Positions 38,848 through 57,284 of a stretch of DNA of 64,000 bases are shown piece after piece. The position numbers and the translations under genes are program-made. Origin of the DNA: Pseudomonadota bacterium (GTDB taxonomy: Bacteria; Desulfobacterota; Desulfobacteria; Desulfobacterales; RPRI01); the NCBI GenBank assembly GCA_043825875.1, contig JBDRRF010000111.1:1-64000 (forward strand). Direction: 5' to 3'. The notes below the pieces were generated by a model. The model searched no databases and was not told the origin of the DNA. It saw only the letters and a program-made list of their open reading frames with translations. Within the stretch, counting starts at the first letter, position 1. Each line of letters opens with the position of its first letter.

Positions 38848-38879
38848 ATTTTTACGGTAATAATAAACCATTAATCAGT

Positions 38880-38897
38880 AACCCCTATGCAGGGGTT
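38880..38897. terminator. Short hairpin between convergent genes
   Basis: AACCCCT-ATGC-AGGGGTT. Confidence 0.5.
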
Positions 38898-38898
38898 C

Positions 38899-39669
38899 TT
38901 ATATTATACTTCTTATAACAATCACAAGCAGCAAAACCACGACTCCTATTATGCCGTATTCGGGATGGGTCACGGTCTCGTTTTTACTGGCAAGAAGGCC
39001 TGGCAGTTCATTGCCAAGCCCATATAAAGCATATACAATCGCATTCCACATCCCGTGAGCAAGTCCGGCAACAAGCAGGGATTTCGACTTATAATACAAC
39101 CCGCCGAATATAAGGCCTACTAAAGAAGTTCCTATAACATACAACAGAATTTCCCATCCTTTAAGTTTATAAAAAATCCCGAAAGGCAAATGCCAGAGAC
39201 CGAAAATAAACGATGCAAAGACAATAGCGTAGAAGGGAGAATAAGTTTCATATAATTCTCTCTGGACTACACCCCGAAAGAAAAGCTCTTCGGTGAAAGT
39301 GGCTATTGTTCCCAATATTATTGCAGATATCGGGATGTTAACCGCTAATTTTAACCAATCCGTTGATGTCATTTCCTTGCCCAGCTTAAGCCCACCCGAC
39401 ATCCATCCTATAGCTAATGTCAAGCCAAGCACTATGGATACCATCAATATTGCTTCCAGGTAATAGGAATGACCTCCCACTATAAAACCCATTTTTGAGA
39501 TAGGTTCATCTCTTCTGAAAAGAAAATGGTATAGTAAACCTAAAAAGCCTACAATAAATGGAATATAAGAGGCTGTTTTATGTCCGAACAGATTTGGCAG
39601 AATAAATGAAAGTAGATAAACAATTAAGATAATAATAGTGATTCGCATAAAGCACCTTCTTTTCATCAC
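38899..39669 (-). CDS. CPBP (Abi/CAAX) intramembrane protease, possible RiPP immunity/processing
   Basis: EELFFRG, FGLWH, AHGMWN; last gene of RiPP cluster. Confidence 0.88.
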   Translation of the reverse strand: MMKRRCFMRITIIILIVYLLSFILPNLFGHKTASYIPFIVGFLGLLYHFLFRRDEPISKMGFIVGGHSYYLEAILMVSIVLGLTLAIGWMSGGLKLGKEMTSTDWLKLAVNIPISAIILGTIATFTEELFFRGVVQRELYETYSPFYAIVFASFIFGLWHLPFGIFYKLKGWEILLYVIGTSLVGLIFGGLYYKSKSLLVAGLAHGMWNAIVYALYGLGNELPGLLASKNETVTHPEYGIIGVVVLLLVIVIRSII

Positions 39670-39693
39670 ATGTTTGTTAAGTCAGCCCTGTCA

Positions 39694-41688
39694 TCAACCT
39701 TTAGTTGGTTTGGCGCCTATCCAGTAACCTGCGGGGTAGTCCGTTGATTTTGGGAAAGGCCTGTAAGGAAGCTCTATTGCCAGAGCCAAAATATGGTCAT
39801 CAATTATTAGCAACAAGTTCTGATCTATTAAAAACTTTACCGCCTTATCAAAATCATTGTTTGAAGCCCCCTCCTTATTAATAAATGTTTTCCTCAATAC
39901 ATCAATTTTTTGAGCCGCATCGCATGCCAGATATATTTTTGCCTCTAGTCCATCTAATTCGTAAATGGTACGAACTGCAACCGGACGGGTATCAATAATA
40001 TATACAACTGAAGACTTTCTTACAATCAGCAGTTCAGGACGATCAGGCTCTTTTCCCCAGAAGAGATTGTTCCATTCTTTTACTGCTCTTTTGACTTTGT
40101 GCAGTCCGGTTCTGGAATTCGTTCCAATAAGGGCAGATAAGATGGGATCATTGTCACGTTTTCTGCGTTTTACATCTTCAAAATAGCTGGATAAATCTAT
40201 TAACTCTTTTTCAGGCAGGCCATAATTGAAAGCAATCAGTGGGTATGGTTTAAGATCCAGCTTGTAGCGGTCTGCATGCCAATAATAATCACTATATCTG
40301 TCATACCTAACCTGATTTACGGAATCCGGTGGCTCCAGGTGAAACAACAGGGGGATAATCTTTGCCATTTCATCATACCATTCATCTTTTTCATCCGGAA
40401 AATCAAACATGATTTTCCAGACGGAACGAATGCCATACTGGCGAGCCCACTTGAGATACTGTATGTTTTGCCAGGCAAAGGTGCCCTTTTTCATAAGGTG
40501 AAGTATTTTACTATGCAGACTCTCAATACCCGGTTGTGTCCAGATGACGCCACCCTCCGACATAATCTTGATATCATCCCGTTTAAGGGTTGTCCGGACC
40601 TCATAAAATATCCGGTATCTACTACCCTGGCAGATAAATTGCTTAAAAAGATCCGGAACATGTGAGGAATGTAACGCATTATCTACAGCCTCTATCCTGT
40701 CTATGTTGTAGCGGTCATGCAATTTTGCTATTTCATTAACGACTTGTTCTACCGGTTTTGCTCTTTGTCCGTCATTTCTTCCGTTCAAACCACAGAACCT
40801 GCATTTTCCCCAGAAGCAACCCCGCGATGTTTCAACAGGCAGGCAGGATACAAGCGTTCGCTTCAATTCCGGAAAACCGGCGAGTGTTGTAAAATACGCA
40901 TCATAATCAGGAGGCGGAATGTTTTTTAGAGATGACAAGGTGGCCCTCGGGAAGGGATCAGGATACAGGCTTGCTTCCTGACAGGCTTTCGGATAGCCTT
41001 TTATCCTGTGTAAAGGGGCAAAAACGCCTTGGGGGATCTCATCCGGGGGTACATCGGCCCCATTCCCTAAGATAGTTTTGACGAGAGGTACTATTAACTC
41101 ATCAGCCTCACCGCTTACTACATAATCCACAAATATAAAATTTTTGTGGGTCGCTACCCCCATGGTGGTTTCGCAATTTGCGCCACCCATCAATGTAACG
41201 ATTTCGGGGCATTTTTCCCGCACCCTTTTAAGCAATGCAAGGCTTGGCAGGTGTTGCTGGAAAGTGGAAGAACACCCGACCATGCGCGGATTTTCTGCGG
41301 CAATACGGTCTGCAATCTCTTCAATATAGCTTTTCGCTGTTTTTTTGACAGCGCGAAGCCGATCCCGAAATGTATCCGGCGGTATATAAGCTGATAACTT
41401 CAACTCTTCGATTAGTTTATCAAGATATATTTCATCAGTATCGGTTTTATCCTCAAATACAAGACTTGAAAAAACCCAATCGGCTATCCCGAATGTGGAA
41501 GATGATTTTTCAATCATCACATAATCTTCTACTTTAACATGGTCACATAAAAGAAGATTGCCATAAAGGATTTGAACCTTGATTTCACTTGATGCCAGAA
41601 TGGAAGAAAGTATTCCAAGTGCCAAGGATGGCCGCTCAAGAGCAGCAAAAGGCATGTTCACCAGAATTATATCACTTGAAATTTTAAT
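39694..41688 (-). CDS. B12-dependent radical SAM RiPP C-methyltransferase (PoyB/C-like) #2; start uncertain
   Basis: VNMPF..PSLALG; TFQQ; GGANC; SGEAD; SRGCFWGKCRFCGLN; QPGIES; frame open upstream of GTG 41661 to 41688. Confidence 0.85.
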   Translation of the reverse strand: MKISSDIILVNMPFAALERPSLALGILSSILASSEIKVQILYGNLLLCDHVKVEDYVMIEKSSSTFGIADWVFSSLVFEDKTDTDEIYLDKLIEELKLSAYIPPDTFRDRLRAVKKTAKSYIEEIADRIAAENPRMVGCSSTFQQHLPSLALLKRVREKCPEIVTLMGGANCETTMGVATHKNFIFVDYVVSGEADELIVPLVKTILGNGADVPPDEIPQGVFAPLHRIKGYPKACQEASLYPDPFPRATLSSLKNIPPPDYDAYFTTLAGFPELKRTLVSCLPVETSRGCFWGKCRFCGLNGRNDGQRAKPVEQVVNEIAKLHDRYNIDRIEAVDNALHSSHVPDLFKQFICQGSRYRIFYEVRTTLKRDDIKIMSEGGVIWTQPGIESLHSKILHLMKKGTFAWQNIQYLKWARQYGIRSVWKIMFDFPDEKDEWYDEMAKIIPLLFHLEPPDSVNQVRYDRYSDYYWHADRYKLDLKPYPLIAFNYGLPEKELIDLSSYFEDVKRRKRDNDPILSALIGTNSRTGLHKVKRAVKEWNNLFWGKEPDRPELLIVRKSSVVYIIDTRPVAVRTIYELDGLEAKIYLACDAAQKIDVLRKTFINKEGASNNDFDKAVKFLIDQNLLLIIDDHILALAIELPYRPFPKSTDYPAGYWIGAKPTKG

Positions 41689-41722
41689 TTATTCACCTCT
41701 TTTTTAAACTGGCTCTTTTGCC

Positions 41723-43768
41723 TCAGATATAATATTGCATATTGTCTATCAGAACATTTCCATTTTTGTTGCAAACATCTTCGCACAGTTCCTCTTGTGC
41801 CGGATTAAAAAGCCCAAGAGGACAGTCCTCCACTTCGGATAGGGGATTTATTTCTTCATCAAAAGCAAGCGATAAAATCCTGTTGTCAATTTTAAGCATG
41901 ATTTTACTATTCAGCATATAATCGATAGCCGAATCGAATTTTTGTGCTGAGAAACCATCGGCTTTATATAATTTTCTTAATTTATCCGGATTTTTTGCAG
42001 CATCACATGCCAGGTATATTGAACTCTGAAGTTCATCTAACTCAACAGATATGTTATTGGTTACGGGACGTGTATCAACGATTTTGACTATCGGATTTTT
42101 TTCCTTAATGAACAGAGCAGGCCTTTCATAATTCTTATCCCAGAAATTAGTTCTCCACTTGCGAATGGCATTTCTTACCATTTCCAACCCATTTCGTGAT
42201 CTTATTCCTATTAAATTGGCAAGTAAGGGAGTGGCCTCTTTCTGGGAACGGTTTGAATCTTCAAAAAAATATGTTTGGGCCATTAAATCAGCAGGCTTTA
42301 GCCTGTAAACCATGCCATAGGATTTAAAAGGTTTCAGCTCCAGATCGAAGTTATCCGGGTGTTTGCAATATTCGCTGTAGCGATCAAATCTAACCTGGTT
42401 TATGGCATCCGGCGGTTCCAGATGAGATAGCAAGGGGATAATTTCAGCCATTTCCTCATACCATTCATCTTGTTCATCAGGAAAGCCAAACATGATTTTC
42501 CATACAGACCGGATTCCATATTGACCGGCCCATTTCAATAATTGTATGTTTTGCCAGGCAGATGACCCCTTTTTCATTATATCAAGCACCTTGCTGTGAA
42601 GGCTCTCTATCCCGGGCTGAATCCAGTTTACTCCCGCTGTATGCAACAACTCAATGTCTTTTCGTTTAAGGAAAGTCCGAACCTCATAGAATATCCTGTA
42701 TTTTTTGGACTGCTTTGTCAGTTTGTCAAATAAGTCCGGCAGATGTTTAGGATGCAATACGTTATCTACCATATCTATACGATCAATGCCGTAACGTTTT
42801 GCCAATGTATTAATTTCAGCAAGTACTCTTTCAGCGGGTTTTATCCGCTGGCCGTCCTTAGACCCGTTCAGGCCGCAAAAACGGCATTTACCCCAGAAAC
42901 ATCCGCGGGAGGATTCTACCGGCAGAGATGAAATAACCGATTTCTTTAACTCCGGCATAGAGTTTAACGTCGCAAAATAATCATCATAATCCGGTATGGG
43001 TGATTTGCTCAGATTTTGAGAATCGGCACGAGGGTAGCCATCTCCGGAATTATCCTTGTTTATTCCAGGATAGCCCGACCGGCGGTGAAGCGGTGCAAAA
43101 ACCCCATAGGGTATTATTTCAGCGGGTATGTTAATTCCATATTTTATGATTGCCTCAACGAGCGGTTTTATCAGGTCATCAGCCTCTCCGCTTACAACAT
43201 AATCAATGAAATCGAAATTTTTGTGGGTTGCCACTCCCATTATAGTCTCGCAATTGGCGCCTCCTATCAATGTAATGATATCGGGGTTTCTTTCCTTTAC
43301 TGTTTTAAGAAGTGCGAGACTTGCTAAATGCTGCTGAAATGTAGATGTGCATGCCAGGATGCGCGGTTTTTCTGAAAGAACAAGCCTTGCAATTTCTTCA
43401 ACAAAAGCTTCTCCCGCTTCCCTGATTGTTAAGATACGTTGCTTAAAAGTGGCTTTGTCCAGACGTTTGAAAAGAGGAACATTGTCTATCAGAGCGTTTA
43501 TATAGTCATCGGAATTTTCATTTGTTTCCGGAAACACCTTCCCGGAAAATATCCAATCCCCAAAGGAGTTTTCAGGCGGGATCTTTTCTACGAGAATATA
43601 GTCTTGTTTTTTGATGGTTTTCAGAAACAGGATGTTGGCATAAAGGTTGGTAACATTGATATTGCCGGCTCTAAGCAAAGACGAAAGAATGCCCAAAGCA
43701 AGTGATGGCCTTTCTATTGCAACAAAAGGCATATTTACCAGCATTATATCAGTTTGTCCTTTAATCAT
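41723..43768 (-). CDS. B12-dependent radical SAM RiPP C-methyltransferase (PoyB/C-like) #1
   Basis: Same motifs as its neighbouring paralogue. Confidence 0.88.
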   Translation of the reverse strand: MIKGQTDIMLVNMPFVAIERPSLALGILSSLLRAGNINVTNLYANILFLKTIKKQDYILVEKIPPENSFGDWIFSGKVFPETNENSDDYINALIDNVPLFKRLDKATFKQRILTIREAGEAFVEEIARLVLSEKPRILACTSTFQQHLASLALLKTVKERNPDIITLIGGANCETIMGVATHKNFDFIDYVVSGEADDLIKPLVEAIIKYGINIPAEIIPYGVFAPLHRRSGYPGINKDNSGDGYPRADSQNLSKSPIPDYDDYFATLNSMPELKKSVISSLPVESSRGCFWGKCRFCGLNGSKDGQRIKPAERVLAEINTLAKRYGIDRIDMVDNVLHPKHLPDLFDKLTKQSKKYRIFYEVRTFLKRKDIELLHTAGVNWIQPGIESLHSKVLDIMKKGSSAWQNIQLLKWAGQYGIRSVWKIMFGFPDEQDEWYEEMAEIIPLLSHLEPPDAINQVRFDRYSEYCKHPDNFDLELKPFKSYGMVYRLKPADLMAQTYFFEDSNRSQKEATPLLANLIGIRSRNGLEMVRNAIRKWRTNFWDKNYERPALFIKEKNPIVKIVDTRPVTNNISVELDELQSSIYLACDAAKNPDKLRKLYKADGFSAQKFDSAIDYMLNSKIMLKIDNRILSLAFDEEINPLSEVEDCPLGLFNPAQEELCEDVCNKNGNVLIDNMQYYI

Positions 43769-43861
43769 ATTCCAATCCTTGATTCAAAATTACTCATAAT
43801 CGGGATTGCCTTTACAGATACTGGTTCAAGATTAAGCCTGGCCGGTCTTGTATTGGTGAGT

Positions 43862-45277
43862 TTATAAGGCATCGTCAAAAATTCCGTTTTGAAAAATTGA
43901 TTGCAAAGTTGCGATGACCGCAAAATAATCTGCGCCGGAGGCAAGCAGTTTCCTGTTAATTTCCATCGTATTCATCTCACCTGATGCGATCATATCACCC
44001 ATCTCCTTTAAAAAATCATGCCCCGAAAAACTTGTTTCCCTATACTTTGAACTAAAACATATCCCATCATTTGTAGAATGGTATTTCAGGTCCTGACGCA
44101 ACTTCAGTACCTTGTCATTTTCAAGATTCGATGAAATATTTTCGGAAACGACTTTCTTTAATATTTGACGGAAATCATCCCCATTTATAAATGTTCCTTC
44201 AAAAAATACTTTATAGCCTGAAGGCCATTTTTCGGAAGCGGGGCAGGGACTGATCAGTTTGATCTTTTTGGTTGCCATGTTGACAACAAAGCCGCTCATA
44301 CAGGCAATTGTACTACCATCGGCTGTTACGGTTGGATCAGCGTTTGAATACAGGTGACGTCCCGCTCTGGCTTTTTTTAGATATAACGGTTTGTTATAAA
44401 GCAATAGTCTGGCATTTACCAATTCTTCCGGGGTGAAATTATCATGAACACGCCTGAGCATAGAGGTTGAGAGAACCGAAAACCGTGTCGAAATGGCATG
44501 AAATCTATTTTGCATATTCAACAGTTCGCGCGTTATCTGCACATTGCGCAAGGGTGCAGCAGTTGTGGTTTGGGGCAGTTCCCCGATAATTTCATGAAAA
44601 TCCTTTATATAATCCAGATAATGTGGATTATCCATAGGCTCGGTAGCCCAGTAGCATACGGATGTCTGACAGGCATCTCCAAAAAGGTCTAACACGGCCT
44701 CCAGCACTGAGCGCCATAATTTTGTATTTTGTTCCGTTCGTTCAAATGCACCCTTGAAATCCTTGGCGGATACACCACAGAAAGGACAGCCCATCGAACA
44801 GCCGTCACTTAATTCAAAGGCAAAAAGAGGATAACTGAATATTTTGGAATGTCCTCCCAGTTCGCTCTCACACCTTTTGCTTTGACGCTGCCGCCAGGCA
44901 TGGAAGCGCGGCTGTTTTTCCGGAGTATCGCCATGTGACCGCATAAGTTCATTTGCATCACAGATTCCCGTAGTCCATTGTGCCCACATTTTGGCAAGAG
45001 GACTGTCCCCCATATCTTCGGCAAGAAGCGGCAGAGGATCGCCCCTATCCCATACGGAGGCCAGGTCCTGAGGGTCAATATCCGCCCCGCATCCGCGGGC
45101 AAATTCCTTTCCTTTGCCGGGGTCTTTTCTTAAGGCATCAAGGAATTTACTATCACCATAAATGCGTTCGATAAGGCGCTTGGTATGAGCAATGGTTTTT
45201 AATTCAACCTCGCTTAATGCAGATAATTTATCTCGGAACAGTTTAAAAACCGATTCGTTTATTTTATTGGATACCAT
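43862..45277 (-). CDS. Radical SAM peptide epimerase (PoyD/OspD-like)
   Basis: AWRQRQ..RC; FELSDGCSMGCPFCG; YWATEPMDNP; PQTTTA; TIACMSGF; GAGAGGA RBS before ATG 45277. Confidence 0.88.
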   Translation of the reverse strand: MVSNKINESVFKLFRDKLSALSEVELKTIAHTKRLIERIYGDSKFLDALRKDPGKGKEFARGCGADIDPQDLASVWDRGDPLPLLAEDMGDSPLAKMWAQWTTGICDANELMRSHGDTPEKQPRFHAWRQRQSKRCESELGGHSKIFSYPLFAFELSDGCSMGCPFCGVSAKDFKGAFERTEQNTKLWRSVLEAVLDLFGDACQTSVCYWATEPMDNPHYLDYIKDFHEIIGELPQTTTAAPLRNVQITRELLNMQNRFHAISTRFSVLSTSMLRRVHDNFTPEELVNARLLLYNKPLYLKKARAGRHLYSNADPTVTADGSTIACMSGFVVNMATKKIKLISPCPASEKWPSGYKVFFEGTFINGDDFRQILKKVVSENISSNLENDKVLKLRQDLKYHSTNDGICFSSKYRETSFSGHDFLKEMGDMIASGEMNTMEINRKLLASGADYFAVIATLQSIFQNGIFDDAL

Positions 45278-45321
45278 TATTCCTCTCAAAAAAAGATAAT
45301 GAACTACCCGCCGTAAAGCAG

Positions 45322-45352
45322 AGCGAGATTACCATCAAATGGTAATCCCGCT
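45322..45352 (-). terminator. Stem-loop between precursor genes and epimerase
   Basis: Minus-strand RNA AGCGGGAUUACCAU-UUG-AUGGUAAUCUCGCU; 14-bp stem, single mismatch is a G-U pair on the sense strand. Confidence 0.65.
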
Positions 45353-45381
45353 ATCCTATTAATCCATAATAACTACAGTGA

Positions 45382-45660
45382 TCAAATAACTCCTACGCAG
45401 ACCGTAACAACAACCCCTGTGACCGTAACGGCTGTGGCATTGCCGGCACCGCCTGCTACCTTTTCGAGATCGTCATCACTTAAGCGGCTCTTGGCCTCTT
45501 CCGCAAATTTCGTCAACTCATCTTTGCTGAATTTATAGCCGTTTTTATTTGCAATAGACACGATTTTGTCCATATCCGAACCTGCAGCAGCTAATTCATC
45601 CTGAAGGTTCTTCTTCCCCTTGACTTCTGTCTGAAACCTCTTAATTTCTTCATTGCTCAT
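45382..45660 (-). CDS. Nif11-type leader RiPP precursor A2; core AGNATAVTVTGVVVTVCVGVI
   Basis: MS.EEIKRF...IA.K.GYKFS..EL...LSDDDLEKVAGG double-glycine leader; GGAG RBS. Confidence 0.92.
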   Translation of the reverse strand: MSNEEIKRFQTEVKGKKNLQDELAAAGSDMDKIVSIANKNGYKFSKDELTKFAEEAKSRLSDDDLEKVAGGAGNATAVTVTGVVVTVCVGVI

Positions 45661-45716
45661 ATCATATCTCCATTTGATTGTTATTGATTACGAGTATTGC
45701 AATCCGGTGATAGACT

Positions 45717-45980
45717 CTATATTGCTGCACCGGCTAGTACTGATACAACGGCGCCGCCTGCTACCTTTTCAAGATCGTCATCACCCAGCGCACCGTCTGC
45801 CTGGCTTGTTTTTTTGGCATCGATTGCGGCTTGAAGCTCTTTCTGTGTGAATTTATAGCCGTGCTTATTGGCACGTTCTACAATTTTAGCCAAGTCACTG
45901 CCGACTTCCACAAGTTCCTTTTGAAGTGCCTTGTTTTTATTTGCTTCGGTTTGGAATCTTTTGATTTCTTCTGCGCTCAT
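45717..45980 (-). CDS. Nif11-type leader RiPP precursor A1; core AVVSVLAGAAI; start moved to MSAEE
   Basis: Paralogous leader ending LGDDDLEKVAGG; AAGGA RBS. Confidence 0.9.
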   Translation of the reverse strand: MSAEEIKRFQTEANKNKALQKELVEVGSDLAKIVERANKHGYKFTQKELQAAIDAKKTSQADGALGDDDLEKVAGGAVVSVLAGAAI

Positions 45981-46096
45981 TTTTATTTTCCTTTTTTTAG
46001 ATGTTGATATTTGTGTTGCATCCATAAGATCGTAACAAGGAGCAACAGTGGGTGTAAAAGCTCTAATTATGTTTAGATATTTTTATCACCTCCTTT

Positions 46097-47290
46097 TTAT
46101 TTATACAGGTTTGATGTTTTCAGGGCCTTTTGGAGATATACAGGTGCATCTTTTGAGGCCAGCTCTTCAAGAGTCAGTAAAGTCAGTGCCAGAAAAATAT
46201 CGGTTCTGTGATTAACATTGTCAGATCCATGCATAAATGCCCTGTCAAAGTGCTCTAAATTTTCAGCCGCATATTTTGCAAGTTTCTGGAGTATTTTAAA
46301 AGCGCCGTCCGATAGCGGCGGGGACCCCCGGTAATTTTCAATCCTGCCCCCTTTCCGGTATTCGGGGAAATTTTCCAGACCGAGAAAGCAAAGGAACCAG
46401 TCTGCCCGAAAGTGCCCTATCGCCGCTGTAATCCCCATATAGTCGGCGATCAATTCGTCTAACAACCGGCTGCGCATGGAAGAGAGAACGTGCCGTGTGA
46501 AGTAGTGGGCGCACTCATGGTCACGCCGGATTATAATCGACAAACGTATCCAGTCTTCTTCGGATAGCCCCATTGCTTTGGCCGGTATGCCGCTGTAATG
46601 GCCGTCGCTAATGATGATAAACCGGTCCTGGTAAAGATCCTTTTGCAAAACGAGACGTTTAAATTCTTCATTCCAGCTTTCTCCGGAAAAATCGAAAGGT
46701 TTATCAGCTTCCCATCTTTTGCGATACCTGCCAACCCTGTCCCAGTTATTGTATCCGGCTATCATGATTGCACCCATGGATTCGGGGATAGGGGCAGGCT
46801 CGTTTTTTTCGGTTAGGGCCTGAACAAGGGCTACAAAATCTTCTCTGGCAGCCGTGATAATGATGGGCACTCGTCCGGCCGCCGTTTGGTGCAGGTTCAA
46901 TCTGAGGTCTTCAGGTTTTTTTAACTTCAGGCCGGTTGCCTGTGAGATTTCTTCAGGATGGATGCCCTTATTCGTGACAGATTTGTAGAATTCCTTTTTG
47001 CTGATTCCCTTTTGAATGGGAAACCAGAGCTGCACCAGCGGGATTTTCAGGGAATCAAAAATGCCTTTGACATCGGCAGATGACAAGTACTCTTCCCAGG
47101 CTAAAATATGAGGCTTATCAGGTAGTGGCAGGTTAAGAGGTAGTGCCAAACTGCTGTGGTCAAACAGGTTCTCGTTATATTTAAGGAGTTCATCTCTCTC
47201 ATTGGGTTTTGCTCCCAATGATATGAGTACAGAATACCGAAAATGGATACGGCTTTTTGCAAAAGAGTTTGTTTTACTGGCTGGTGACAT
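46097..47290 (-). CDS. Uncharacterised HExxH protein (DUF7005-like by recall)
   Basis: GYNNWDR; IRRDHECAHY; DELIADYMG; GGRIENYRG; overlaps SBP gene end. Confidence 0.6.
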   Translation of the reverse strand: MSPASKTNSFAKSRIHFRYSVLISLGAKPNERDELLKYNENLFDHSSLALPLNLPLPDKPHILAWEEYLSSADVKGIFDSLKIPLVQLWFPIQKGISKKEFYKSVTNKGIHPEEISQATGLKLKKPEDLRLNLHQTAAGRVPIIITAAREDFVALVQALTEKNEPAPIPESMGAIMIAGYNNWDRVGRYRKRWEADKPFDFSGESWNEEFKRLVLQKDLYQDRFIIISDGHYSGIPAKAMGLSEEDWIRLSIIIRRDHECAHYFTRHVLSSMRSRLLDELIADYMGITAAIGHFRADWFLCFLGLENFPEYRKGGRIENYRGSPPLSDGAFKILQKLAKYAAENLEHFDRAFMHGSDNVNHRTDIFLALTLLTLEELASKDAPVYLQKALKTSNLYK

Positions 47291-48428: not shown

Positions 48429-48515
48429 GATAGTGCCTCCTGCTGCTAACTCTCATACAAACCTTATCATATCCAAATGGAGTGAAATAATGAGAGTATA
48501 ATAAAAAAACTATGC

Positions 48516-48657
48516 GAGCCAGTTTCAAAACGCCCCAGCTTGGCCGATCTCTGCGTTGGGCTCAAATTTCAATCCTCGAAATACTCAATGTATTCCTGTG
48601 GTTGAAATTTTCTCCCGCCTTGAGCTTGACCAAGCTGAAACGTTTTGAAAGTGGCTC
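48516..48657 (+). mobile_element. MITE family A, full copy, TSD ATGC, inserted at the ABC gene stop codon
   Basis: 142 bp; ATGC on both flanks. Confidence 0.92.
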
Positions 48658-51562
48658 ATGCGAGCTGTCTTTTTGCCAGATCAGCGAAAAACCCTTCAAG
48701 GGCCATGAGTTCGTCATAGGTTCCCGTTTCCAGAATTTCACCGTGCTGAAGGACAAAAATTCGGTCCGCGTTGATAATCGTGCTGAGCCGGTGCGCGATT
48801 ACCACACGGGTTACCTGAAGCTTCTCAAGGCTGCGGCTTACGATCGCCTGAGTGTGGTTGTCCAGTGCACTGGTAGCTTCATCAAAAAATAGAATCCTGG
48901 GTCTTCTGACAATTGCCCTGGCTATGATCAATCTTTGTCTCTGGCCTCCGGATAGCGTGCCTCCGCCTGCGCTGACCACCGTGTGCATACCCATGGGCAT
49001 GGCTTCAATGTCTTTATCAACGCCCACCATCCTGGCCGCTGTCCAGGCATCATCAAGAGTAAGGTTGGAGGTTCCGACAATATTTTTAAAAATATCACCC
49101 GGCATTACTTTAGCATTTTGAAGCACAACACCCATCTGGCGCCTTACTTCGCGGATATCAATGGATTCCAAATCCTTACCGTCGTAATAAATAGTGCCGG
49201 CCTCCTGGGTATCAAAGCCGAGCAAAAGCCTCAACAGGGTTGATTTCCCTGATCCTGATCCTCCAACGAGTGCGATAAACTCTCCCGGTGAAATCTGCAT
49301 GGAAACATCTTTTAATATAAGCGGGCCGTCCGGGTTATAACGAAAATATATATTACTGACTTCAATCTCACCGGCCAACTCACCAGGTTTGGCCTTCGTT
49401 TCATCAGACTCCGGTACATTTTCAATTATGGGTTTTATCCTCTCATAAAGAGGGATTATATTTAAAGAGGTCGTGATGGCTGCAGCCATCTGCAGCATAG
49501 CCGCCTGGAAATTACCGTAAGCGGCATTGAATGCCAGAAAATTACCCGTGCTCAATCCGCCTTCGTTTGATTTCCAGATTACCCATGCAAAGATGGCCAT
49601 TGAGGCCACTAAGGGGAAGGCGGCATTAAAGGAAGTTACAACGTTTTGAATCATGCCCGCCTTGTAGGCGAATTTTTTTTTCTCGGCGAAATTTCGTGTC
49701 CACTCGGCAAAAGCACGATCTTCTGTGCCGGAAACCCTAAGCTTGGCAATACCTGTAATAAACTGCAAAACCATGCCTGATATTTTACCTTCAATTTCAG
49801 TCATTTGTCTTTGATAATTTACAATCAGATAACTTGCAAAAACAGTGGAAAGAATGCTGAAAACGGATAATCCAACCCCAATTATGGCTAGCTTCCAATC
49901 GTAATAAAAAAGGAGTACCAGATTAAAAGCAGAAAAAAGACAGGCCAGTATGGCGTTTACGGTAACACCTGAAAGAATCTGCCTTATCTGGTTGATTCCC
50001 ATCGCCCTTTTTGCCAGATCTCCTGCGGTGTAATTGCGAAAAAATGGTACGGGCAAGGCTATGAGTCGATCCCAGAGCGCCGTTTGAACGGTTGAATCCA
50101 TTATTCCCTCTATGCGCAAAAGAGCAATCCCCTTGGTAACATTGAACATGACGGTCGCTACCGCAGATGTTGCCAGAATGATGGAGATCTGCATGAGCTG
50201 GCCCCGAGCAGCTTCGGGTATAATCGTGCCAAAGATAATGCCGGTCATGATCGGTGTGAGCAGACCGAGAAGAGCGCCGATGATTCCCATGAAAACAACT
50301 GTTGCCAAGGTTCCTGAACATCCTTGAAATCCGAACTTCAAAAGGTCGGCTCCCGTAAGAGGTCGTTCCGGAAATGGCCTGTAAAAGCAGAAGGCCTCTG
50401 AATCCAGGGTATCTGCCATCTGGGAAGTTACTTTATTTTGGGTTCCCTTGACCGGATCATGAATATGATATTTTCGTGGCGAGATGGGAATCAATGCTAC
50501 CGGCTGTTTCCCTTCGTTTATAAATGCGAGCAAGGGACCGTGGTCGAAACGCCACCAGGTATCTCTTAAAATGACGCTGCGGATACGAAAACCGGAAGTT
50601 CGGGCAATATCTTCCAGTGAGGTTTTCCGGCTTTCCTCCTCCGGACCCGAGGGTGATCGCACCTTGATATTGAGGGCATTCCCAACCATCTCACAGGCGG
50701 ATAGCAATGCTTCCCCTTCTCCCCTCCTTGGTACGGGTTTTTCCTTTTTTGTCTCAAGAATATCCCCAAGGCGGGAAAAGGAACTCATCAGATTGTAACG
50801 GTCGGATTCGCCTTTTTTCCGGAGACGCTCCTGTTCAGCAATTTCAGTTCGGCCTCTGTTAATATCAATGCATTTCAAAACAAATTGATGGAAGGCTTCA
50901 AGTGCGTGCCATTGGGGATCTTCTAAAAGAAAGGACGACATATCGATCACATTAAAAAGTGCTTCACCGGATGTGACGAGCCATGCCTTTGTGGATAAGG
51001 GGAAAAGGCTTTTGCCTGAAATTTCGGGCCAGTCTTCCCGGCCCATCAATCGGAGTTTGCCTTCTATAAGACTGACCCAAATGGTCTCATCCGGCGTACT
51101 GAAAGTGCTTCCATCCTTATCCGATATCTGAACCCCGATTTCTATATTCTTGAAGTTTCGTGGGAAAATATTGTTATCGCGGATTCCTGACGAAAGTCCG
51201 TCAATCCACATTTCGACAAGGTTTTTGATCGTTTTGCTGTGTGTTGGCTCAATGGCAAGTTCAATAAATCTTGATCTTGCGCATGCTACCAGTGATGTCC
51301 CCGGACCACCCACAGCCATCAGGGATGTGGCCTGACCAAGCTGGTCCACATTCATCCCAAACAGAGCCTCTCCCTTTTTAGCCCGAAAAAGATGAATGCG
51401 GGGGCCGACGGCATCTCCCTTGTCTGTCCGAACGGAAAACACATCCACCTGTCCGGAAAGGACAATAAAGACCTTTTCAATATCGGCAAGAAGAAGAGGC
51501 CGGTTACCTCTTGTTTCGAAGGGGGTGCCTTCTTTTGAAAATATGTCGAGGTTCTCTTTCAA
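48656..51562 (-). CDS. NHLP bacteriocin export ABC transporter permease/ATPase (no peptidase)
   Basis: N-terminal VFIVLSGQVDVF region; WWRFDHGP; FYRPFP; GGSGSGKST, LSGGQRQR, DEATS. Confidence 0.9.
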   Translation of the reverse strand: MKENLDIFSKEGTPFETRGNRPLLLADIEKVFIVLSGQVDVFSVRTDKGDAVGPRIHLFRAKKGEALFGMNVDQLGQATSLMAVGGPGTSLVACARSRFIELAIEPTHSKTIKNLVEMWIDGLSSGIRDNNIFPRNFKNIEIGVQISDKDGSTFSTPDETIWVSLIEGKLRLMGREDWPEISGKSLFPLSTKAWLVTSGEALFNVIDMSSFLLEDPQWHALEAFHQFVLKCIDINRGRTEIAEQERLRKKGESDRYNLMSSFSRLGDILETKKEKPVPRRGEGEALLSACEMVGNALNIKVRSPSGPEEESRKTSLEDIARTSGFRIRSVILRDTWWRFDHGPLLAFINEGKQPVALIPISPRKYHIHDPVKGTQNKVTSQMADTLDSEAFCFYRPFPERPLTGADLLKFGFQGCSGTLATVVFMGIIGALLGLLTPIMTGIIFGTIIPEAARGQLMQISIILATSAVATVMFNVTKGIALLRIEGIMDSTVQTALWDRLIALPVPFFRNYTAGDLAKRAMGINQIRQILSGVTVNAILACLFSAFNLVLLFYYDWKLAIIGVGLSVFSILSTVFASYLIVNYQRQMTEIEGKISGMVLQFITGIAKLRVSGTEDRAFAEWTRNFAEKKKFAYKAGMIQNVVTSFNAAFPLVASMAIFAWVIWKSNEGGLSTGNFLAFNAAYGNFQAAMLQMAAAITTSLNIIPLYERIKPIIENVPESDETKAKPGELAGEIEVSNIYFRYNPDGPLILKDVSMQISPGEFIALVGGSGSGKSTLLRLLLGFDTQEAGTIYYDGKDLESIDIREVRRQMGVVLQNAKVMPGDIFKNIVGTSNLTLDDAWTAARMVGVDKDIEAMPMGMHTVVSAGGGTLSGGQRQRLIIARAIVRRPRILFFDEATSALDNHTQAIVSRSLEKLQVTRVVIAHRLSTIINADRIFVLQHGEILETGTYDELMALEGFFADLAKRQLA

Positions 51563-51612
51563 ATTATTTAATTTCCCACTTGGTTAAATAAACCTTAAAT
51601 ATGGGGAGAAAC

Positions 51613-53817
51613 TTATTGTTCCCCGATTAATTCAGCGTAAGGCCCCTTGATATTGCGCATCTCTTCATGGGTGCCCCTTTGCAAGACCTTTCCCTGGTCA
51701 AGAACGATTATTTCATCACAATCTCTGATTGTGCTTAAACGATGCGCCACAATAATACAGGTACATCCCCGACGCCTGAGATTGTCATCAACGATTTTCT
51801 CTGTATGGGGATCAAGGGCGCTGGTGGCTTCATCCAGGACAAGGATTGTTGGATTATTAACCAGTGCCCTGGCTATTTCCAGTCTCTGGCGTTGTCCACC
51901 GCTAAAGTTATTTCCTCCCTCTTCAACATTGCTCGAATATCCCCCCGCGCGCATTGCAATATCGGGATGGATACAGGCATCTTTTGCAGCATGGATGATT
52001 GTGGATTCCGGAATGGATTCATCCCACATGGCCAGGTTGGAACTAATTGACTCTTCAAACATAAAGATATCCTGATCAACCATGGCTAATGAGTTGCAGA
52101 ATATATCCCGCGGTATTTCATTCATTTTTTTGCCATCAAAAAGGATTTCACCTTCCCAGGATTCATAAAGTCCGGTAATGAGCTTTGCGATGGTTGATTT
52201 GCCGGACCCGGAACCTCCGACCAAAGCTACCCGCATTCCGGGTTTCAAGTTCATGCTGAAATTTTCTATTAATGGTGGAGCCATGCGGCTGTAACCATAA
52301 GTAATATTATTGAGACTCAGATTACCGGATAGTTTTACGGCCAACGAATCCTCTTGTTTCGATTCCTGATCTGAAAAGTTTGGGGGGAGACCTTGCTCAA
52401 TGCTAAAACGATTGTCTACGGGATAACTCTGGACATCATCTAACCGATTCATATCGGCCTGGGTTTCCTGAAGCGTACTGCCTAAATTGACCATATGATT
52501 TACAGGCTGCATAAAGCTGCTCATGAGGCTTTGGAAGGCGACCAGCATACCCATACTCAAATAGCCGTCCATAACACGCGCGCCCCCGACACCCAGAATT
52601 ACTACGGTATTCAGACTTGCAAGAAATGGCGGCACCAGGGAAAGTAGTTGGCTGGAAACGGCCAACTGCTGTTGCGCATTCAGTACCTTGGCCTGATATC
52701 CGGACCACTGGGAGAAAAAATCAGATTCTGACCCGGTGGCTTTCAGTGTTTCGATCATTTGGAGGCCGTTCATAGCGGTTCCAATCATCTTACCCGCCTC
52801 CTGCTGCAAACGCATATTAAGGTCCGTTCGTTTTCGGGATACATATTTCAAAACGGCAAGATTCAAAAGGGCGATAAAGATACCTACAAGGGTAAGCACT
52901 ATGTCGTATTGTAACATCAGGATCGCATAAAACATAATCATGGCAAGATTAATGATATTGGTCGCCAACTCCCCTGAAAGTAAGTGAGCCACCTTGTCAT
53001 TGAGTAATACACGGTCGCCTACCTCTCCCCCAAATCGCTGGGCAAAAAATTCAACCGGTAATCTGAATACATGCCGGAAAAATTTGCTGGAAGAGGTAAG
53101 TGCAAGCTTGGTTTCAAACCTAAGGAGGTAGTACTCCTGAAGCCATGTCAGACCGCCCCGAATAAGGGCGGTTAATCCCATTGCCAGCAGCAATGGCCTC
53201 AGCCAGCCCTCCATGCCGTCGACCAGAATATTATCCACAAAGATCTTGGAAAAGATCGGAATTACGAGCCCTGGAATTACAAGAAAAAGACCGGCAAGAA
53301 CCACAAAGGTGAGTGCTGATTTGGTGCCGACAAAACGTTGACGAAGGGCGCGGAAGAGGCTTTTTTTCTCTCCCCCTTTTTGGAAGTCCTCTGTTGGTTT
53401 AAATATCAGGACGACCCCGGTAAAAGATTGATCGAATTCTTCTACAGAAATTACTCTGGGGCCTACGGCAGGATCATTCAAAAAAGCGCGACCGTTTTTA
53501 ATCCCTTCAAGAACAACAAAGTGGTTGAAATTCCAGAAAACGATCATCGGAAGTTCAAATTCCCTAAGCCCGTCCGGTTCCTTTTTATACCCTTTGGCCT
53601 CAAAACCGTATTTTCGCGCCGCCTTAAGGATGTTACTTGCCTTGCTGCCGTCACGCGAGATGCCGCACTCAATTCTCAGCTTTTCAAGAGGAACAAAGCG
53701 ATGAAAATAGGCCAGAATCATGGCAAGGGATGCCGCACCACACTCCACAGCCTCCATCTGAAGAACCGTCGGTGTTTTTACCCGCTTGTTGCTCCATACT
53801 TTTTTCGGTTCGTCCAT
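51613..53817 (-). CDS. NHLP-family C39 peptidase/permease/ATPase exporter
   Basis: QMEAVECGAA, FWNFNHFVV, NDPA; Walker A/B; FSGGQRQR. Confidence 0.93.
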   Translation of the reverse strand: MDEPKKVWSNKRVKTPTVLQMEAVECGAASLAMILAYFHRFVPLEKLRIECGISRDGSKASNILKAARKYGFEAKGYKKEPDGLREFELPMIVFWNFNHFVVLEGIKNGRAFLNDPAVGPRVISVEEFDQSFTGVVLIFKPTEDFQKGGEKKSLFRALRQRFVGTKSALTFVVLAGLFLVIPGLVIPIFSKIFVDNILVDGMEGWLRPLLLAMGLTALIRGGLTWLQEYYLLRFETKLALTSSSKFFRHVFRLPVEFFAQRFGGEVGDRVLLNDKVAHLLSGELATNIINLAMIMFYAILMLQYDIVLTLVGIFIALLNLAVLKYVSRKRTDLNMRLQQEAGKMIGTAMNGLQMIETLKATGSESDFFSQWSGYQAKVLNAQQQLAVSSQLLSLVPPFLASLNTVVILGVGGARVMDGYLSMGMLVAFQSLMSSFMQPVNHMVNLGSTLQETQADMNRLDDVQSYPVDNRFSIEQGLPPNFSDQESKQEDSLAVKLSGNLSLNNITYGYSRMAPPLIENFSMNLKPGMRVALVGGSGSGKSTIAKLITGLYESWEGEILFDGKKMNEIPRDIFCNSLAMVDQDIFMFEESISSNLAMWDESIPESTIIHAAKDACIHPDIAMRAGGYSSNVEEGGNNFSGGQRQRLEIARALVNNPTILVLDEATSALDPHTEKIVDDNLRRRGCTCIIVAHRLSTIRDCDEIIVLDQGKVLQRGTHEEMRNIKGPYAELIGEQ

Positions 53818-53837
53818 TAAAGAATATCCTTTACAAC

Positions 53838-55109
53838 TTACTCCTTACCCACACCGAGGAAGCTTTTTTTGAATAGGGGAACGATCAGGCTAACGGGACG
53901 TTGTTCGGAAATGGTAACCGATGAATAACAGAGTGTTCCCGTATTGACCTTGATGGGAGGCCCATTAGAGGAAGACCATTTATAGCCGCTGGGAGTTCGT
54001 GGATCAGGAATCAGATCCGCGCGTACTTCTATGGGCGCTCCTCCCTGAGAGAGATTTTGTACCAGCGCTTCGTTTTGAAGATCTCTCATCATACCCTGAT
54101 GTGTAGAAGGAAACTCTGAAACATAAGTTACCATTCCCCGTATGAAGCCGTATTTTTCCTGTTTAACGGTGGATGGAGAGATCTGTGCAGCCATGCCAAG
54201 TCGAATTTTTTTCCCCTGCCTTGGGGGAAAGTACAAGACGGCTTCCAGATTCTTGATATTTTTTCCAATGAGTTCAATGCTGATAAGCGGTATGCCTTTA
54301 CCGACAACGGAACCTTCATCAACAGCAATTTCCAGGATGCGCCCCGTATAGGGACTGACGACTTTAGAGGTATCATTCAGATCATTTTGCAACTGATCAA
54401 TATTCCTTCCCGCCTCGCTTATTTTCTGTTCCATGGCTCTTAGATCTTTTTCCTGCTGGTTTTTGAGTTGCAGCTTTCTGATAGAGATCTGTTGCAGTTT
54501 GTTGAGGTTTTCCCTGTTTTGTTGCAGTGTATTATTTAATTCTTCCTGTGTGTCCATCAGCTGTTGCTTTGTAATCAGGCCCATGTCCATAATGACTTTC
54601 TGGCTCTCAATTTTATTTTCCAGGTATGTAATGCGGACTTTCAGGGTGGCTATGGTGCGGTTCAGATTAGCCTTCTGATTTGACATGGACTCTCTTTCAA
54701 GTTTCATTTCATTTGATCCAAAAACTGCAATTTGCTCACGTTCACCCAAAAGCTCCTGTAAAACAGCCCTGGCTGATTTTATCCGGTCTAAAATTTCGGG
54801 CTGTTCCAGGCGGGCAACGATCTGACCACTGTGAATTATATCATCCACACTAAAATAAAGGTTTTGTACACGGCCTGCGCTATTGGAAACGATTTTAAAT
54901 ACGCCTCCTGATTTCATTAAAATTCCCTGGCCCGCCACTTTATCCGGAATGGTTCCCCAAAACCCCCAGAAGATTGCACAGGCCAGGAGTCCCATCGCGG
55001 CGATGAGCGCAACCCAGCCCTTTGGAGTGGTAATCCTCATCAACTGATCGAGTTGCTCAGGAGAGGATAACCTCTCCAGGGCAACTTTACGAAAGATTTG
55101 ATCGGCCAT
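53838..55109 (-). CDS. NHLP bacteriocin system secretion protein (HlyD-type)
   Basis: IFRKVALERLSSPEQLDQL; TPSGYKWSSSNGP. Confidence 0.92.
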   Translation of the reverse strand: MADQIFRKVALERLSSPEQLDQLMRITTPKGWVALIAAMGLLACAIFWGFWGTIPDKVAGQGILMKSGGVFKIVSNSAGRVQNLYFSVDDIIHSGQIVARLEQPEILDRIKSARAVLQELLGEREQIAVFGSNEMKLERESMSNQKANLNRTIATLKVRITYLENKIESQKVIMDMGLITKQQLMDTQEELNNTLQQNRENLNKLQQISIRKLQLKNQQEKDLRAMEQKISEAGRNIDQLQNDLNDTSKVVSPYTGRILEIAVDEGSVVGKGIPLISIELIGKNIKNLEAVLYFPPRQGKKIRLGMAAQISPSTVKQEKYGFIRGMVTYVSEFPSTHQGMMRDLQNEALVQNLSQGGAPIEVRADLIPDPRTPSGYKWSSSNGPPIKVNTGTLCYSSVTISEQRPVSLIVPLFKKSFLGVGKE

Positions 55110-55134
55110 GGCCTGTGACCCTCCTCAATCTGTT

Positions 55135-56709
55135 CTAACGGTTCTGCTTGTAATCGGGAATTTCAGCCAGTTGTTCCATAGTGATAGTATACTCCCCATT
55201 GTACTCATGCAGCAGTGTTCCTGTTGCAAAACGAAGTTGGAGCAGAGCGCCGGCATATTGCCTATGAGAAACAACATCGGTTAGCAGGGCATTTCTGTAC
55301 TTATCCTCAATTCCCACGACATCAATTACTGTGGATAGCCCTATCTTAAGTTTAAATTTTTCGTTTTCCAGAGCCTTTTTATAGCTGGCAACTGATTTTT
55401 GTGATTCCTGAAGTTCCTTTGTCCTTTGTATGAGGGCATTTATGGCTATGGCAACATCGGAATGGATATTTCTCTCCAGGTCAGTAGATCGAATACGTGC
55501 CTGTTGATAGGAAGATTTTCTCTGATAATAAAGCCCTTTAGGCGCATTGTTTCCGAAAGGATAAACTAAACTGATCATGGCTGAGCCGTTTAAACCCCTT
55601 ACATTTTCCTGAAAAGCATCATAATACCCTGATTCGCTGTCGCTTTCTTCAAGTCCTTGATAGCCCATGCTAAAAGAAAGATCCAGTTGAGGCCGCATAT
55701 TTAGTCTGGCGGCCGAGAGCAGTATCCTGGCGGATTCCTGCAACTTTTTTAACGCTATCAGATCGGCGCGGTTTTCAGTTGATATCTGAAAGAATTTTTC
55801 TCTCTGGCTTATAATTGAAAGTTTCTTTTCAGACAGAAGTTCAGGAAAAATATCAGCAGGAGTGGGAAGCTCAATAATCTTGCTGTATTGAAGACCCATA
55901 GCAATGCCTAATTGCTGATAGTTTTCATACAGATTTTGTTCTCCTTGTATTCGATTGCCTGTTTTTGAAGCCAGATTTGCCCTGAGCTGGTCAAGATCAG
56001 AAGATGGCCGCTCATCAGCTTCTACAAGTTTTTCAACATCTTCTAACAGTTGTTGAGCCCTGGATTCCGTCTCTTTGAGGATTTTGAGATTCATAAAGGC
56101 CGCTAAAAGTGTCCAGTAAGCATTTCCCGTTTCCAGCACGGATGCTGAGACCGTGTGCCTAAGATCCCTTTCAGAAGCTTGAAGCCGGATTTTCGCCGAC
56201 ATCTCTTCAGCCCCTGCGGCTTCTTTGCCGCTACCCTTGAGAAGGGGGAAAATCAAAGCGAAATTGACACTGCTTTTATTTGTGGTTTGAGCGCCAAAAC
56301 TCAGATCATCGTTGCGAGTCATCTGCAGATTTGGTTTTATGGTGATGCCGTTTCTAAGCTTTTTGCTCAAACTCATCGTATATGTGGTCAGATTTTCCAC
56401 ATCTTTTGAACGCCCGTATAACGCCCTGTCTGCGGCTGTCAGAGGTGTGCTGTTGCGGGTACGATTAATATCAGCTATTATGGTCGGGTCGAACTGTCCC
56501 TGAGTTTGTTGCAGCGCCCCTTTGCTGATTTGTACTTCTTCTTCTTGAATTTTTATGGAAGGTTGATGGGAGAGAGTTGTTTTGATGGCATCAATGATAC
56601 TAAGCCCTTTAGATTTTTCCTGAGCAATAATTTGCGCCGGAACAAAAAGCAGCAAAGAAAAAAAGATAAGATAAACAGCTCTGATATAAACTTTTTTCTG
56701 ACTGAGCAT
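55135..56709 (-). CDS. TolC-family outer membrane protein
   Basis: Signal peptide; GQFDP; helical repeats; ENEKFKLKIGLST; LRFATG. Confidence 0.85.
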   Translation of the reverse strand: MLSQKKVYIRAVYLIFFSLLLFVPAQIIAQEKSKGLSIIDAIKTTLSHQPSIKIQEEEVQISKGALQQTQGQFDPTIIADINRTRNSTPLTAADRALYGRSKDVENLTTYTMSLSKKLRNGITIKPNLQMTRNDDLSFGAQTTNKSSVNFALIFPLLKGSGKEAAGAEEMSAKIRLQASERDLRHTVSASVLETGNAYWTLLAAFMNLKILKETESRAQQLLEDVEKLVEADERPSSDLDQLRANLASKTGNRIQGEQNLYENYQQLGIAMGLQYSKIIELPTPADIFPELLSEKKLSIISQREKFFQISTENRADLIALKKLQESARILLSAARLNMRPQLDLSFSMGYQGLEESDSESGYYDAFQENVRGLNGSAMISLVYPFGNNAPKGLYYQRKSSYQQARIRSTDLERNIHSDVAIAINALIQRTKELQESQKSVASYKKALENEKFKLKIGLSTVIDVVGIEDKYRNALLTDVVSHRQYAGALLQLRFATGTLLHEYNGEYTITMEQLAEIPDYKQNR

Positions 56710-56789
56710 ATATTACCCTGAATTAAGCCCAAGATTTAAATTCTTTCAAGTCATTCATAATAAATAGGCTGGAAAAAACATAAACAAAA

Positions 56790-56953: not shown

Positions 56954-56973
56954 GAGTAATTATTAATTAAATT

Positions 56974-57273: not shown

Positions 57274-57284
57274 GTCATTGAGTT

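Follow-up and report, generated by a model that had tools for sequence, protein, structure and literature searches.

The characterised proteusins that join radical S-adenosylmethionine (SAM) epimerisation to C-methylation, namely the polytheonamides (poy) and the aeronamides (aer), are pore formers of about 48 residues that are hard to produce and to engineer. Their precursors carry a long structured NHLP leader with a double-glycine end and a core rich in Val, Ala and Thr whose length suffices to cross a membrane as a single beta-helix, and they are tailored by a PoyD-family epimerase, by B12-dependent radical SAM C-methyltransferases (two paralogues in poy), by an Asn N-methyltransferase (PoyE/AerE) and by the products of further genes. 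PoyD-type epimerisation is described as irreversible and as broad in the residues it reaches, with Val, Ala, Thr, Ser and Asn among them (PMC9811515), while PoyC and PoyB are described as C-methylating the side chains of Val, Ile and Met (PMC11285071). In the landornamide cluster (osp; Kamptonema/Oscillatoria), also called a proteusin (PMC9811515), a Nif11-type leader and a short core are combined with the PoyD-type enzyme OspD, a LanM and a peptide arginase, without a C-methyltransferase. A third relevant system is the NHLP/Nif11 export cassette, presented as three proteins linked to Nif11 precursors (Haft, Basu and Mitchell 2010, PMC2887384). Here we analyse a predicted cluster for ribosomally made peptides with post-translational modifications (RiPPs) at positions 38899–56709 of a 64,000-nucleotide (nt) DNA stretch, hereafter the window (contig JBDRRF010000111.1 of assembly GCA_043825875.1, positions 1 to 64,000), from a groundwater anaerobe of the lineage Desulfobacterales.

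The locus has the Nif11-type leader with a double-glycine end and the PoyD-family epimerase adjoining the precursor that are typical of proteusins, and it shares with poy and aer methyltransferases of the PoyB/PoyC type, the long structured leader and the Val/Ala/Thr-rich cores. On the other hand, Nif11 and not NHLP was the sole family matched by the precursor leaders (NCBIfam, E ≤ 0.001), the cores measure 11 and 21 amino acids (aa) instead of 48–49 aa, a C39 exporter would remove the leader, and the cluster motif of the methyltransferases is Cx4Cx2C. Among the 41 window open reading frames (ORFs) scanned with Pfam and NCBIfam, no LanM, YcaO or N-methyltransferase family was found, in agreement with an earlier reading made from the letters of the window (the sequence-only reading), and none for a dehydratase, a hydroxylase or a recognised separate cytoplasmic leader protease. 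Compared with landornamide, the window has two C-methyltransferases and neither a LanM nor an arginase family. The adjacent export proteins of TIGR03794, TIGR03796 (with its C39 domain) and TIGR03797, all above equivalog cut-offs, correspond to the NHLP/Nif11 cassette, which comprises three genes as given in PMC2887384; the window and eight of nine other loci add a DUF7005 protein to it, and the window's phylum adds a lipoprotein of the solute-binding protein (SBP) type and TolC. The nearest loci by layout belong to Desulfomonile-type and related metagenome-assembled genomes (MAGs; L011, L015, L029, L031, L034, L036 and L079), in which Nif11 precursor(s), epimerase and two TIGR03975 genes follow each other at 38–42% identity; their cores are longer, however (about 40–51 aa), and Glu/Thr-rich. 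The enzymes are of known types, and what is new is their short-peptide version, not a categorically new system. A characterised product of a short-core Nif11 precursor with epimerase and C-methyltransferase was not found in the literature searched, which lacks most subscription journals, in line with the sequence-only reading, which did not recognise the locus as a characterised cluster; the mined-proteusin lists in supplements of genome-mining papers could already hold relatives.

We consider it likely that the cluster is a functional proteusin-type RiPP operon built of two modules, one for export and processing and one for tailoring. The sequence data show which genes are present and in what order, that the leaders end in a double glycine, that the cores are under purifying selection and that each module recurs elsewhere. 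Twelve ORFs, all with intact frames, lie on the minus strand only, separated by gaps of 20–227 nt apart from a single overlap of 17 nt between the SBP and DUF7005 genes, and are transcribed in the order TolC, HlyD, ABC1 (C39), ABC2 (the two ATP-binding cassette proteins), SBP, DUF7005, precursors A1 and A2, epimerase, methyltransferases MT1 and MT2, and CPBP. These are the 12 co-oriented genes of the sequence-only reading, and the families named there were all recovered above a curated cut-off when Pfam and NCBIfam bit scores were compared with it (Table 1). The ORFs listed there are present at the coordinates given, but two of the gene starts, those of A1 and of the epimerase, are more likely internal (see below).

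Both precursors end in short hydrophobic cores, as had been anticipated. In A1, ...ALGDDDLEKVAGG is followed by AVVSVLAGAAI, the 11-aa core after the GG; in A2, ...LSDDDLEKVAGG is followed by the 21-aa core AGNATAVTVTGVVVTVCVGVI. Val occupies nine of 21 positions in the A2 core and three of 11 in that of A1, and the cores consist mostly of Val, Ala, Thr and Gly. Both leaders close with LxxxxLEKVAGG. Their positions −4, −7 and −12 are hydrophobic, as a review describes for leaders of the Nif11 and NHLP kinds that C39 exporters process (PMC10885120). Translation of A1 most likely starts from the ATG at 45980 (M16 of the ORF first listed), since the Nif11 match begins there and the tblastn match in a sibling strain is 100% identical from that ATG. 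In the genome, which is 99.8% complete, the only Nif11 precursors are these two and the only epimerase is that of the cluster.

The sibling strain is represented by a metagenome contig (L090) that is 95–97% identical in DNA and 91–99% in protein. Its first bases fall in HlyD and it reaches as far as CPBP, so that 11 genes are covered and TolC alone lies beyond its end. Groundwater metagenomes of three studies contain DNA of the cluster, one of them perhaps being its source, and no RNA data set with it was found. Between the two strains A1 shows seven synonymous and no non-synonymous differences. A2 shows nine synonymous and eight non-synonymous ones, with all eight replacements in the leader (positions 3–59), and its 21-residue core has three synonymous differences and no replacement. 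Because A1 and the A2 core differ synonymously only, this comparison shows that both precursor genes are real and that the cores are under purifying selection. The stem-loop between A2 and the epimerase gene (z −3.36; 0 of 200 shuffles fold as well) is also kept in the sibling strain, where one stem change turns a G-U into a G-C pair; it might be an mRNA stabiliser, a processing signal or an attenuator.

The tailoring module, as we read it from the gene content, would comprise A1, A2, the PoyD-type epimerase and the two B12/radical SAM C-methyltransferases, followed by CPBP. The epimerase, with a Cx3Cx2C motif, begins about 100 nt downstream of A2, most likely at the ATG at 45277, since its 98% identical homologue has 471 aa. 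That homologue is the one of the sibling strain, and the next relatives share 53, 52, 48 and 46% identity (297 of 7792 candidates reached E ≤ 0.001). MT1 and MT2 are 53% identical to each other and both carry CFWGKCRFC. In a quick maximum-likelihood tree (LG+G4) of 49 rows, i.e., the two window proteins and 47 tblastn-derived sequences from genome loci, after removal of matches with stops or with less than 80% query coverage and with no characterised PoyB/PoyC taken in, MT1 and MT2 appeared as sisters (SH-aLRT 100), although both rows have an unusual amino-acid make-up and could attract each other, whereas the Desulfomonile-type pairs fell into two separate old clades (100 and 99). This topology suggests that MT1 and MT2 arose by a duplication of their own within the window's lineage. 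At least one enzyme of the B12 pathway, CbiC, is encoded in the genome, in keeping with a supply of the cofactor. The same genome has a third TIGR03975 C-methyltransferase (contig C79:281730-283346, L167:9677-11467; 456 bits), far from Nif11 precursors or epimerase, placed after a 1039-aa protein of no family and an 83-aa ORF and before a PDZ-domain protein, which may mark a separate unrecognised locus for peptide or protein modification.

Table 1. Features of the RiPP cluster in the window, in order of transcription, with bit scores and curated cut-offs where available.
Feature	Position	Strand	Support
TolC-family outer-membrane channel	55135..56709	-	Pfam OEP 111 bits; TIGR01844 weak, under cut-off
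HlyD-type adaptor, NHLP/Nif11 bacteriocin export	53838..55109	-	TIGR03794 399 vs 156
ABC1: C39 peptidase/permease/ATPase, predicted leader-cleaving exporter	51613..53817	-	TIGR03796 1135 vs 853; Peptidase_C39 134 bits
ABC2: second export permease/ATPase	48656..51562	-	TIGR03797 999 vs 709, residues 283-967
Lipoprotein SBP, LivJ-like fold, putative export-module companion	47274..48428	-	Peripla_BP_6 139 vs 32
DUF7005 protein, HExxH...ExxxD	46097..47290	-	PF22541 513 vs 27; motif HECAH
Precursor A1, Nif11 leader	45717..45980	-	TIGR03798 39.8 vs 32.3
Precursor A2, Nif11 leader	45382..45660	-	TIGR03798 53.4 vs 32.3
14-bp stem-loop between A2 and epimerase gene	45322..45352	-	Fold -29.1 kcal/mol
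PoyD-family radical SAM peptide epimerase	43862..45277	-	TIGR04517 448 vs 325; motif CSMGCPFC
MT1, B12-binding radical SAM C-methyltransferase	41723..43768	-	TIGR03975 591 vs 282; B12-binding + Radical_SAM domains
MT2, B12-binding radical SAM C-methyltransferase, MT1 paralogue	39694..41661	-	TIGR03975 561 vs 282; B12-binding + Radical_SAM domains
CPBP (Rce1-like) intramembrane protease, candidate immunity/processing protein	38899..39669	-	PF02517 75 vs 22

To place the cluster among its relatives, epimerase loci were collected by an alignment-based scan, used instead of a single-protein scan of genome contigs that gave none. It retrieved 344 relatives in species-representative genomes (78 loci kept) and 289 in metagenomes (77 loci kept), and up to 10 kb on each side of the epimerase was queried by tblastn with the window proteins. 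Of the 78 genome loci, 40 had at least one TIGR03975-like gene in the flank (one gene in 32, two in eight), and of the 77 metagenome loci 31 did (one gene in 26, two in five, sibling included); these counts are lower bounds, because many contigs are short. Nif11 precursors were parsed in 72 loci by a script cutting at the leader-end motif. Long cores (29–78 aa; Ala, Val, Thr and Glu-rich) were found in 48 of them and short cores (≤25 aa; Val/Ala/Thr-rich, with 34% Val and 18% Ala) in 23, one being the sibling; five loci had both kinds, and seven precursors had no cut motif. Record titles for the 22 short-core loci besides the sibling name Acidobacteriota, Planctomycetota, Bacillota and Thermodesulfobacteriota among others. 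Examples of short cores are SSTAETVVVIGVTVVAT in Desulfarculaceae, SAVAVATVAVVVLV with three others in Planctomycetota, TAVGVLTVAVAVVAVAAT in Holophagales and other Acidobacteriota, and VVAGAVEVVAVVVAVAT in a locus (L130) that also has two methyltransferase genes. Since both the pairing of epimerase with C-methyltransferase and the short Val-rich cores recur in many genomes and metagenomes, the window cluster is, on these sequence comparisons, a member of a recurring and phylogenetically scattered short-core group, and is less singular than had been thought. A different kind of Nif11-leader protein was seen in Desulfomonilaceae MAGs (L006:1032-4898 and 6066-9605; L027:2780-6616), where proteins of 1179–1288 aa start with a normal Nif11 leader (...NRVVGG) and finish in a hydrophobic Val/Ala/Thr-rich tail. 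A PoyD-family epimerase is encoded no more than 10 kb away from them, and a 'core' of protein size behind such a leader is unusual.

The export side of the cluster recurs on its own terms. DUF7005 homologues are widespread (2627 at E ≤ 0.001 among 8000 candidates scored); the best 120, 52–95% identical and all with PF22541, come from Nostoc and other cyanobacteria, deltaproteobacterial MAGs, Scalindua and Bacillota. In the window's phylum DUF7005 is rare and exceeded the cut-off in two of 401 sampled genomes, one of them the window's own. The other (G362, locus L168) has TolC-HlyD-ABC1-ABC2-SBP-DUF7005-precursor at 45–73% identity, with the core SSAPWVAVGTGAAGAGAAAAAA, and its contig stops some 400 nt past the precursor; no epimerase was found in that genome with this protein query, which does not imply absence, as the genome is 97% complete and in 710 contigs. 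A Desulfarculaceae locus (L004) gave full-length matches to HlyD-ABC1-ABC2-SBP-DUF7005-precursor-epimerase in this order, besides a weak TolC-like match (38%, 84 bits) of unplaced position, and in L156 export genes, SBP and DUF7005 are likewise combined with the genes of an epimerase locus. On plasmids DUF7005 stood beside NHLP export genes in five of five matches. The four annotated plasmid records place it next to RiPP genes of different classes, with LanM lanthipeptide genes for Pseudanabaena and Spirosoma (the latter with the window order TolC-HlyD-ABC1-ABC2-DUF7005), lanthipeptide precursors and a radical SAM gene in N. punctiforme, and genes for thiazole/oxazole-modified microcins (TOMM) with a 'nif11-class radical SAM maturase 3' in Nostoc C057. 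Altogether, with window and sibling left out, DUF7005 adjoins export genes in eight of nine independent loci, the exception being L010.

The SBP has a lipobox-like N-terminus (...FFVMMAC, by our reading), no close paralogue in its own genome (next best 26% over part of the length) and 41–59% identity to the SBPs at the same position in L004, L149, L150, L152, L156 and L168. Because both SBP and DUF7005 recur beside the exporter, and DUF7005 even in lanthipeptide and TOMM clusters, we assign them to the export module, and read TolC-HlyD-ABC1-ABC2-SBP-DUF7005 as what would be one transferable unit independent of the peptide chemistry. This qualifies the sequence-only reading, as the HExxH protein and the SBP go with the export cassette and do not count as tailoring enzymes particular to this chemistry. 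In the window's phylum the SBP lipoprotein occupies the position immediately upstream of DUF7005; on the cyanobacterial plasmids of L082, L083 and L087, beside the NHLP exporter, a protein with a cyclic-nucleotide-binding domain follows DUF7005 and a MinD/ParA-family protein often precedes it, which suggests that the cyanobacterial neighbours are further unrecognised accessory parts of the export system. An unannotated stretch of plasmid pn1 of Nostoc sp. UHCC 0926 (L089) has DUF7005 and NHLP export genes and, at a distance of about 10 kb, two precursors of the Nif11 type and an epimerase resembling PoyD (35%). The term DUF7005 was not found in the literature searched, and its link to NHLP/Nif11 exporters offers a testable role for a widespread protein of unassigned function.

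As to what DUF7005 does, 36 sequences agree without exception at H258, E259, H262, E279 and D283. Gluzincin peptidases have this layout, an HExxH with an ExxxD some 17 residues further on. No NCBIfam family was matched by the protein at E ≤ 0.001. Its AlphaFold model (pLDDT 86, pTM 0.86) gave nothing at E ≤ 0.001 with Foldseek against the Protein Data Bank (PDB), and the best E of a PDB sequence profile was 0.47. In the VIA comparison the best Z was 5.0, on an 80-residue helical piece, while thermolysin (Z 4.4; 184 residues aligned, root-mean-square deviation 5.5), M30 (4.1), M36 (4.0) and collagenase G (4.1) matched at background level. In the Atlas, Peptidase_M1 clusters reached TM values of 0.26–0.37, under the bar, and feature matches to DUF6866 reached 0.81–0.84, under the 0.9 lead level. 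Predicted as a complex with the precursor alignment, without controls, DUF7005 scored 0.04, where the mark is 0.32. Longer, fused DUF7005 proteins were found three times, twice with FAD-oxidoreductase domains, too few to indicate a function. As a hypothesis with modest backing from motif and neighbourhood, DUF7005 is probably a cytoplasmic zincin-like metalloenzyme or peptidase that serves the exporter, for instance in the disposal of the leaders, which are about 70 residues long.

Biosynthesis could then proceed as follows. Through its leader, each precursor would dock on all three radical SAM enzymes; some L-residues of the core would be turned irreversibly into D-residues by the epimerase, and MT1 and MT2 would methylate unactivated side-chain carbons, most likely converting Val into tert-leucine-type residues. 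The C39 domain of ABC1 would cleave after the GG during export through ABC1/ABC2-HlyD-TolC, thus releasing a very hydrophobic 11-mer and 21-mer. Given that the cores are mostly Val, Ala, Thr and Gly and that the chemistries of the families are characterised, the products are likely, by analogy, to contain D-residues and tert-leucine-type methylation. They would most likely act on the membranes of competitors, with CPBP, and perhaps the SBP lipoprotein too, protecting the producer, while DUF7005 would probably operate as a zincin-type peptidase for the exporter and not in core tailoring. Immunity is a reasonable guess for CPBP because Abi/CPBP-type proteins are known as bacteriocin immunity factors; its gene lies 24 nt downstream of MT2 on the same strand and is retained in the sibling strain (96%). 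The three tailoring enzymes, all radical SAM and oxygen-sensitive, fit an anaerobic producer.

Several points weigh against this interpretation or parts of it. No regulator was seen inside the cluster. CPBP is not conserved, as this query did not recover it from the 154 remaining epimerase loci, and may be unrelated to the peptide, while any role for the SBP is a guess. The peptidase assignment of DUF7005 draws on the motif and on weak fold similarities, with no significant match to a solved protein. With Cx4Cx2C, the cluster motif of MT1 and MT2 departs both from the canonical Cx3Cx2C and from the Cx7Cx2C given for PoyC (PMC11285071). As the epimerisation pattern is described as dictated by still undefined core elements (PMC9811515), the epimerised sites and their pattern are not predictable from sequence.

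Among the other explanations, DUF7005 might itself be a tailoring or maturation enzyme, either a second protease trimming the core or an HExxH oxygenase, in which case the tailoring set would not be minimal and possibly not oxygen-independent. Its invariant HExxH...ExxxD, the FAD-oxidoreductase domains in two of the three longer homologues and its place in the loci would be in accordance with such a function, since it lies directly upstream of the precursors in the window, L004 and L168 and directly after a methyltransferase in L010 and L156. We nevertheless regard this as rather improbable: at 39–56% identity DUF7005 is found beside NHLP exporters of lanthipeptide, TOMM and other RiPPs with unrelated cores, its 52–65% identity across phyla fits a conserved leader or exporter partner better than a partner of variable cores, and its lack of an NCBIfam match at E ≤ 0.001 extends to the curated HExxH peptide-modifying models, which we take to be included in that library.

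A similarly small probability is given to the view that the peptides are not antibiotics and are instead self-directed or signalling molecules, sensed for instance through the SBP, or structural components of the envelope. The SBP, without paralogue in its genome and recurring with such clusters, could be a receptor, no immunity transporter of the ABC type is present, and the function of most Nif11 peptides is given as unassigned by Haft 2010 (PMC2887384). Yet no sensor kinase or regulator is encoded beside the SBP, and the bacteriocin immunity known for CPBP/Abi-type proteins also speaks for an antibiotic. The characterised proteusins with epimerase and C-methyltransferase are moreover described as membrane-active cytotoxins (PMC11285071). 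Still less credible, and very unlikely in our opinion, is a decaying or silent acquisition whose genes yield no product. The sporadic and probably horizontal occurrence, with DUF7005 in two of 401 genomes of the phylum and a next epimerase relative, after the sibling, at 53%, would suit it, but all 12 frames are intact, and two strains 3–5% apart in DNA keep all the covered genes (11 of 12) with cores under purifying selection.

If the two-module operon is as we propose, the same two chemistries that build the polytheonamides and aeronamides would be applied to 11- and 21-residue cores by three tailoring enzymes, giving a compact test bed for the site choice of radical SAM epimerases and for the building of tert-leucine-type residues by B12 methyltransferases. 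The cluster might yield small, protease-resistant, membrane-active peptides, and the recurring short-core group makes it a family to mine and not a single case. A comparison with gramicidin A suggests itself, which is made by a nonribosomal peptide synthetase, is short, hydrophobic and Val/Ala/Gly-rich, and whose D-residues allow a dimeric membrane-spanning beta-helix. The analogy is functional only: the window peptides might behave alike, and alternating D/L residues are hypothetical here. In a bolder version, which we hold to be speculative and doubtful, the products would be the smallest proteusins, in which D- and L-residues alternate and side chains are of tert-leucine type, all set by oxygen-independent radical chemistry, and which fold into gramicidin-like beta-helices that dimerise to ion channels; DUF7005 would be a new zincin peptidase family and a general fourth component of NHLP/Nif11 exporters, and the SBP a periplasmic binder of the product for immunity or as a chaperone. 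Such peptides would be a ribosomal counterpart of gramicidin A.

Two neighbouring genes were considered as cluster members and set aside. An ABM-domain gene upstream of TolC (56974–57273), a candidate thirteenth gene, was not found in related loci with that query, and an HDAC-like gene (37114–38847) is on the other strand and convergent. For the N-terminal region of ABC2 (about 282–284 residues) no Pfam family was found at E ≤ 0.01. Between 38500 and 57600 promoter predictions (43, against 36.9 ± 7.2 in shuffles) and terminator predictions (23, against 20.8 ± 4.5) were not above shuffles, and no Rfam family reached its gathering score within 38000–58000, so no cobalamin riboswitch was seen.

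In the rest of the window, the previous suggestion of an anaerobic aromatic degrader is supported by the bzd-type benzoyl-CoA reductase subunits N, O and Q (BzdN, BzdO and BzdQ), which exceed equivalog cut-offs and lie with a fourth, activase-type ATPase at 14911–19112. The set is of class I, ATP-dependent (14053–19112, plus strand), with surroundings extending to about 36500; it is surrounded by genes of beta-oxidation type, and downstream come enoyl-CoA hydratases, thiolases and acyl-CoA dehydrogenases as well as an Fe-S/flavin oxidoreductase of 840 aa, and a TetR regulator is encoded at 13277–13984. At 6510–7364 (plus strand) an ORF with an HTH/MqsA-antitoxin-like N-terminus and a SocA/Panacea domain may be the antitoxin of a toxin-antitoxin pair. 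At the opposite end, a frame of more than 2100 aa (57489–63998, minus strand) with GH94 supersandwich, catalytic and glucoamylase domains, resembling cyclic beta-1,2-glucan synthase/phosphorylase, runs off the window and has a GC content of 0.51–0.55 against about 0.42 in the remainder.

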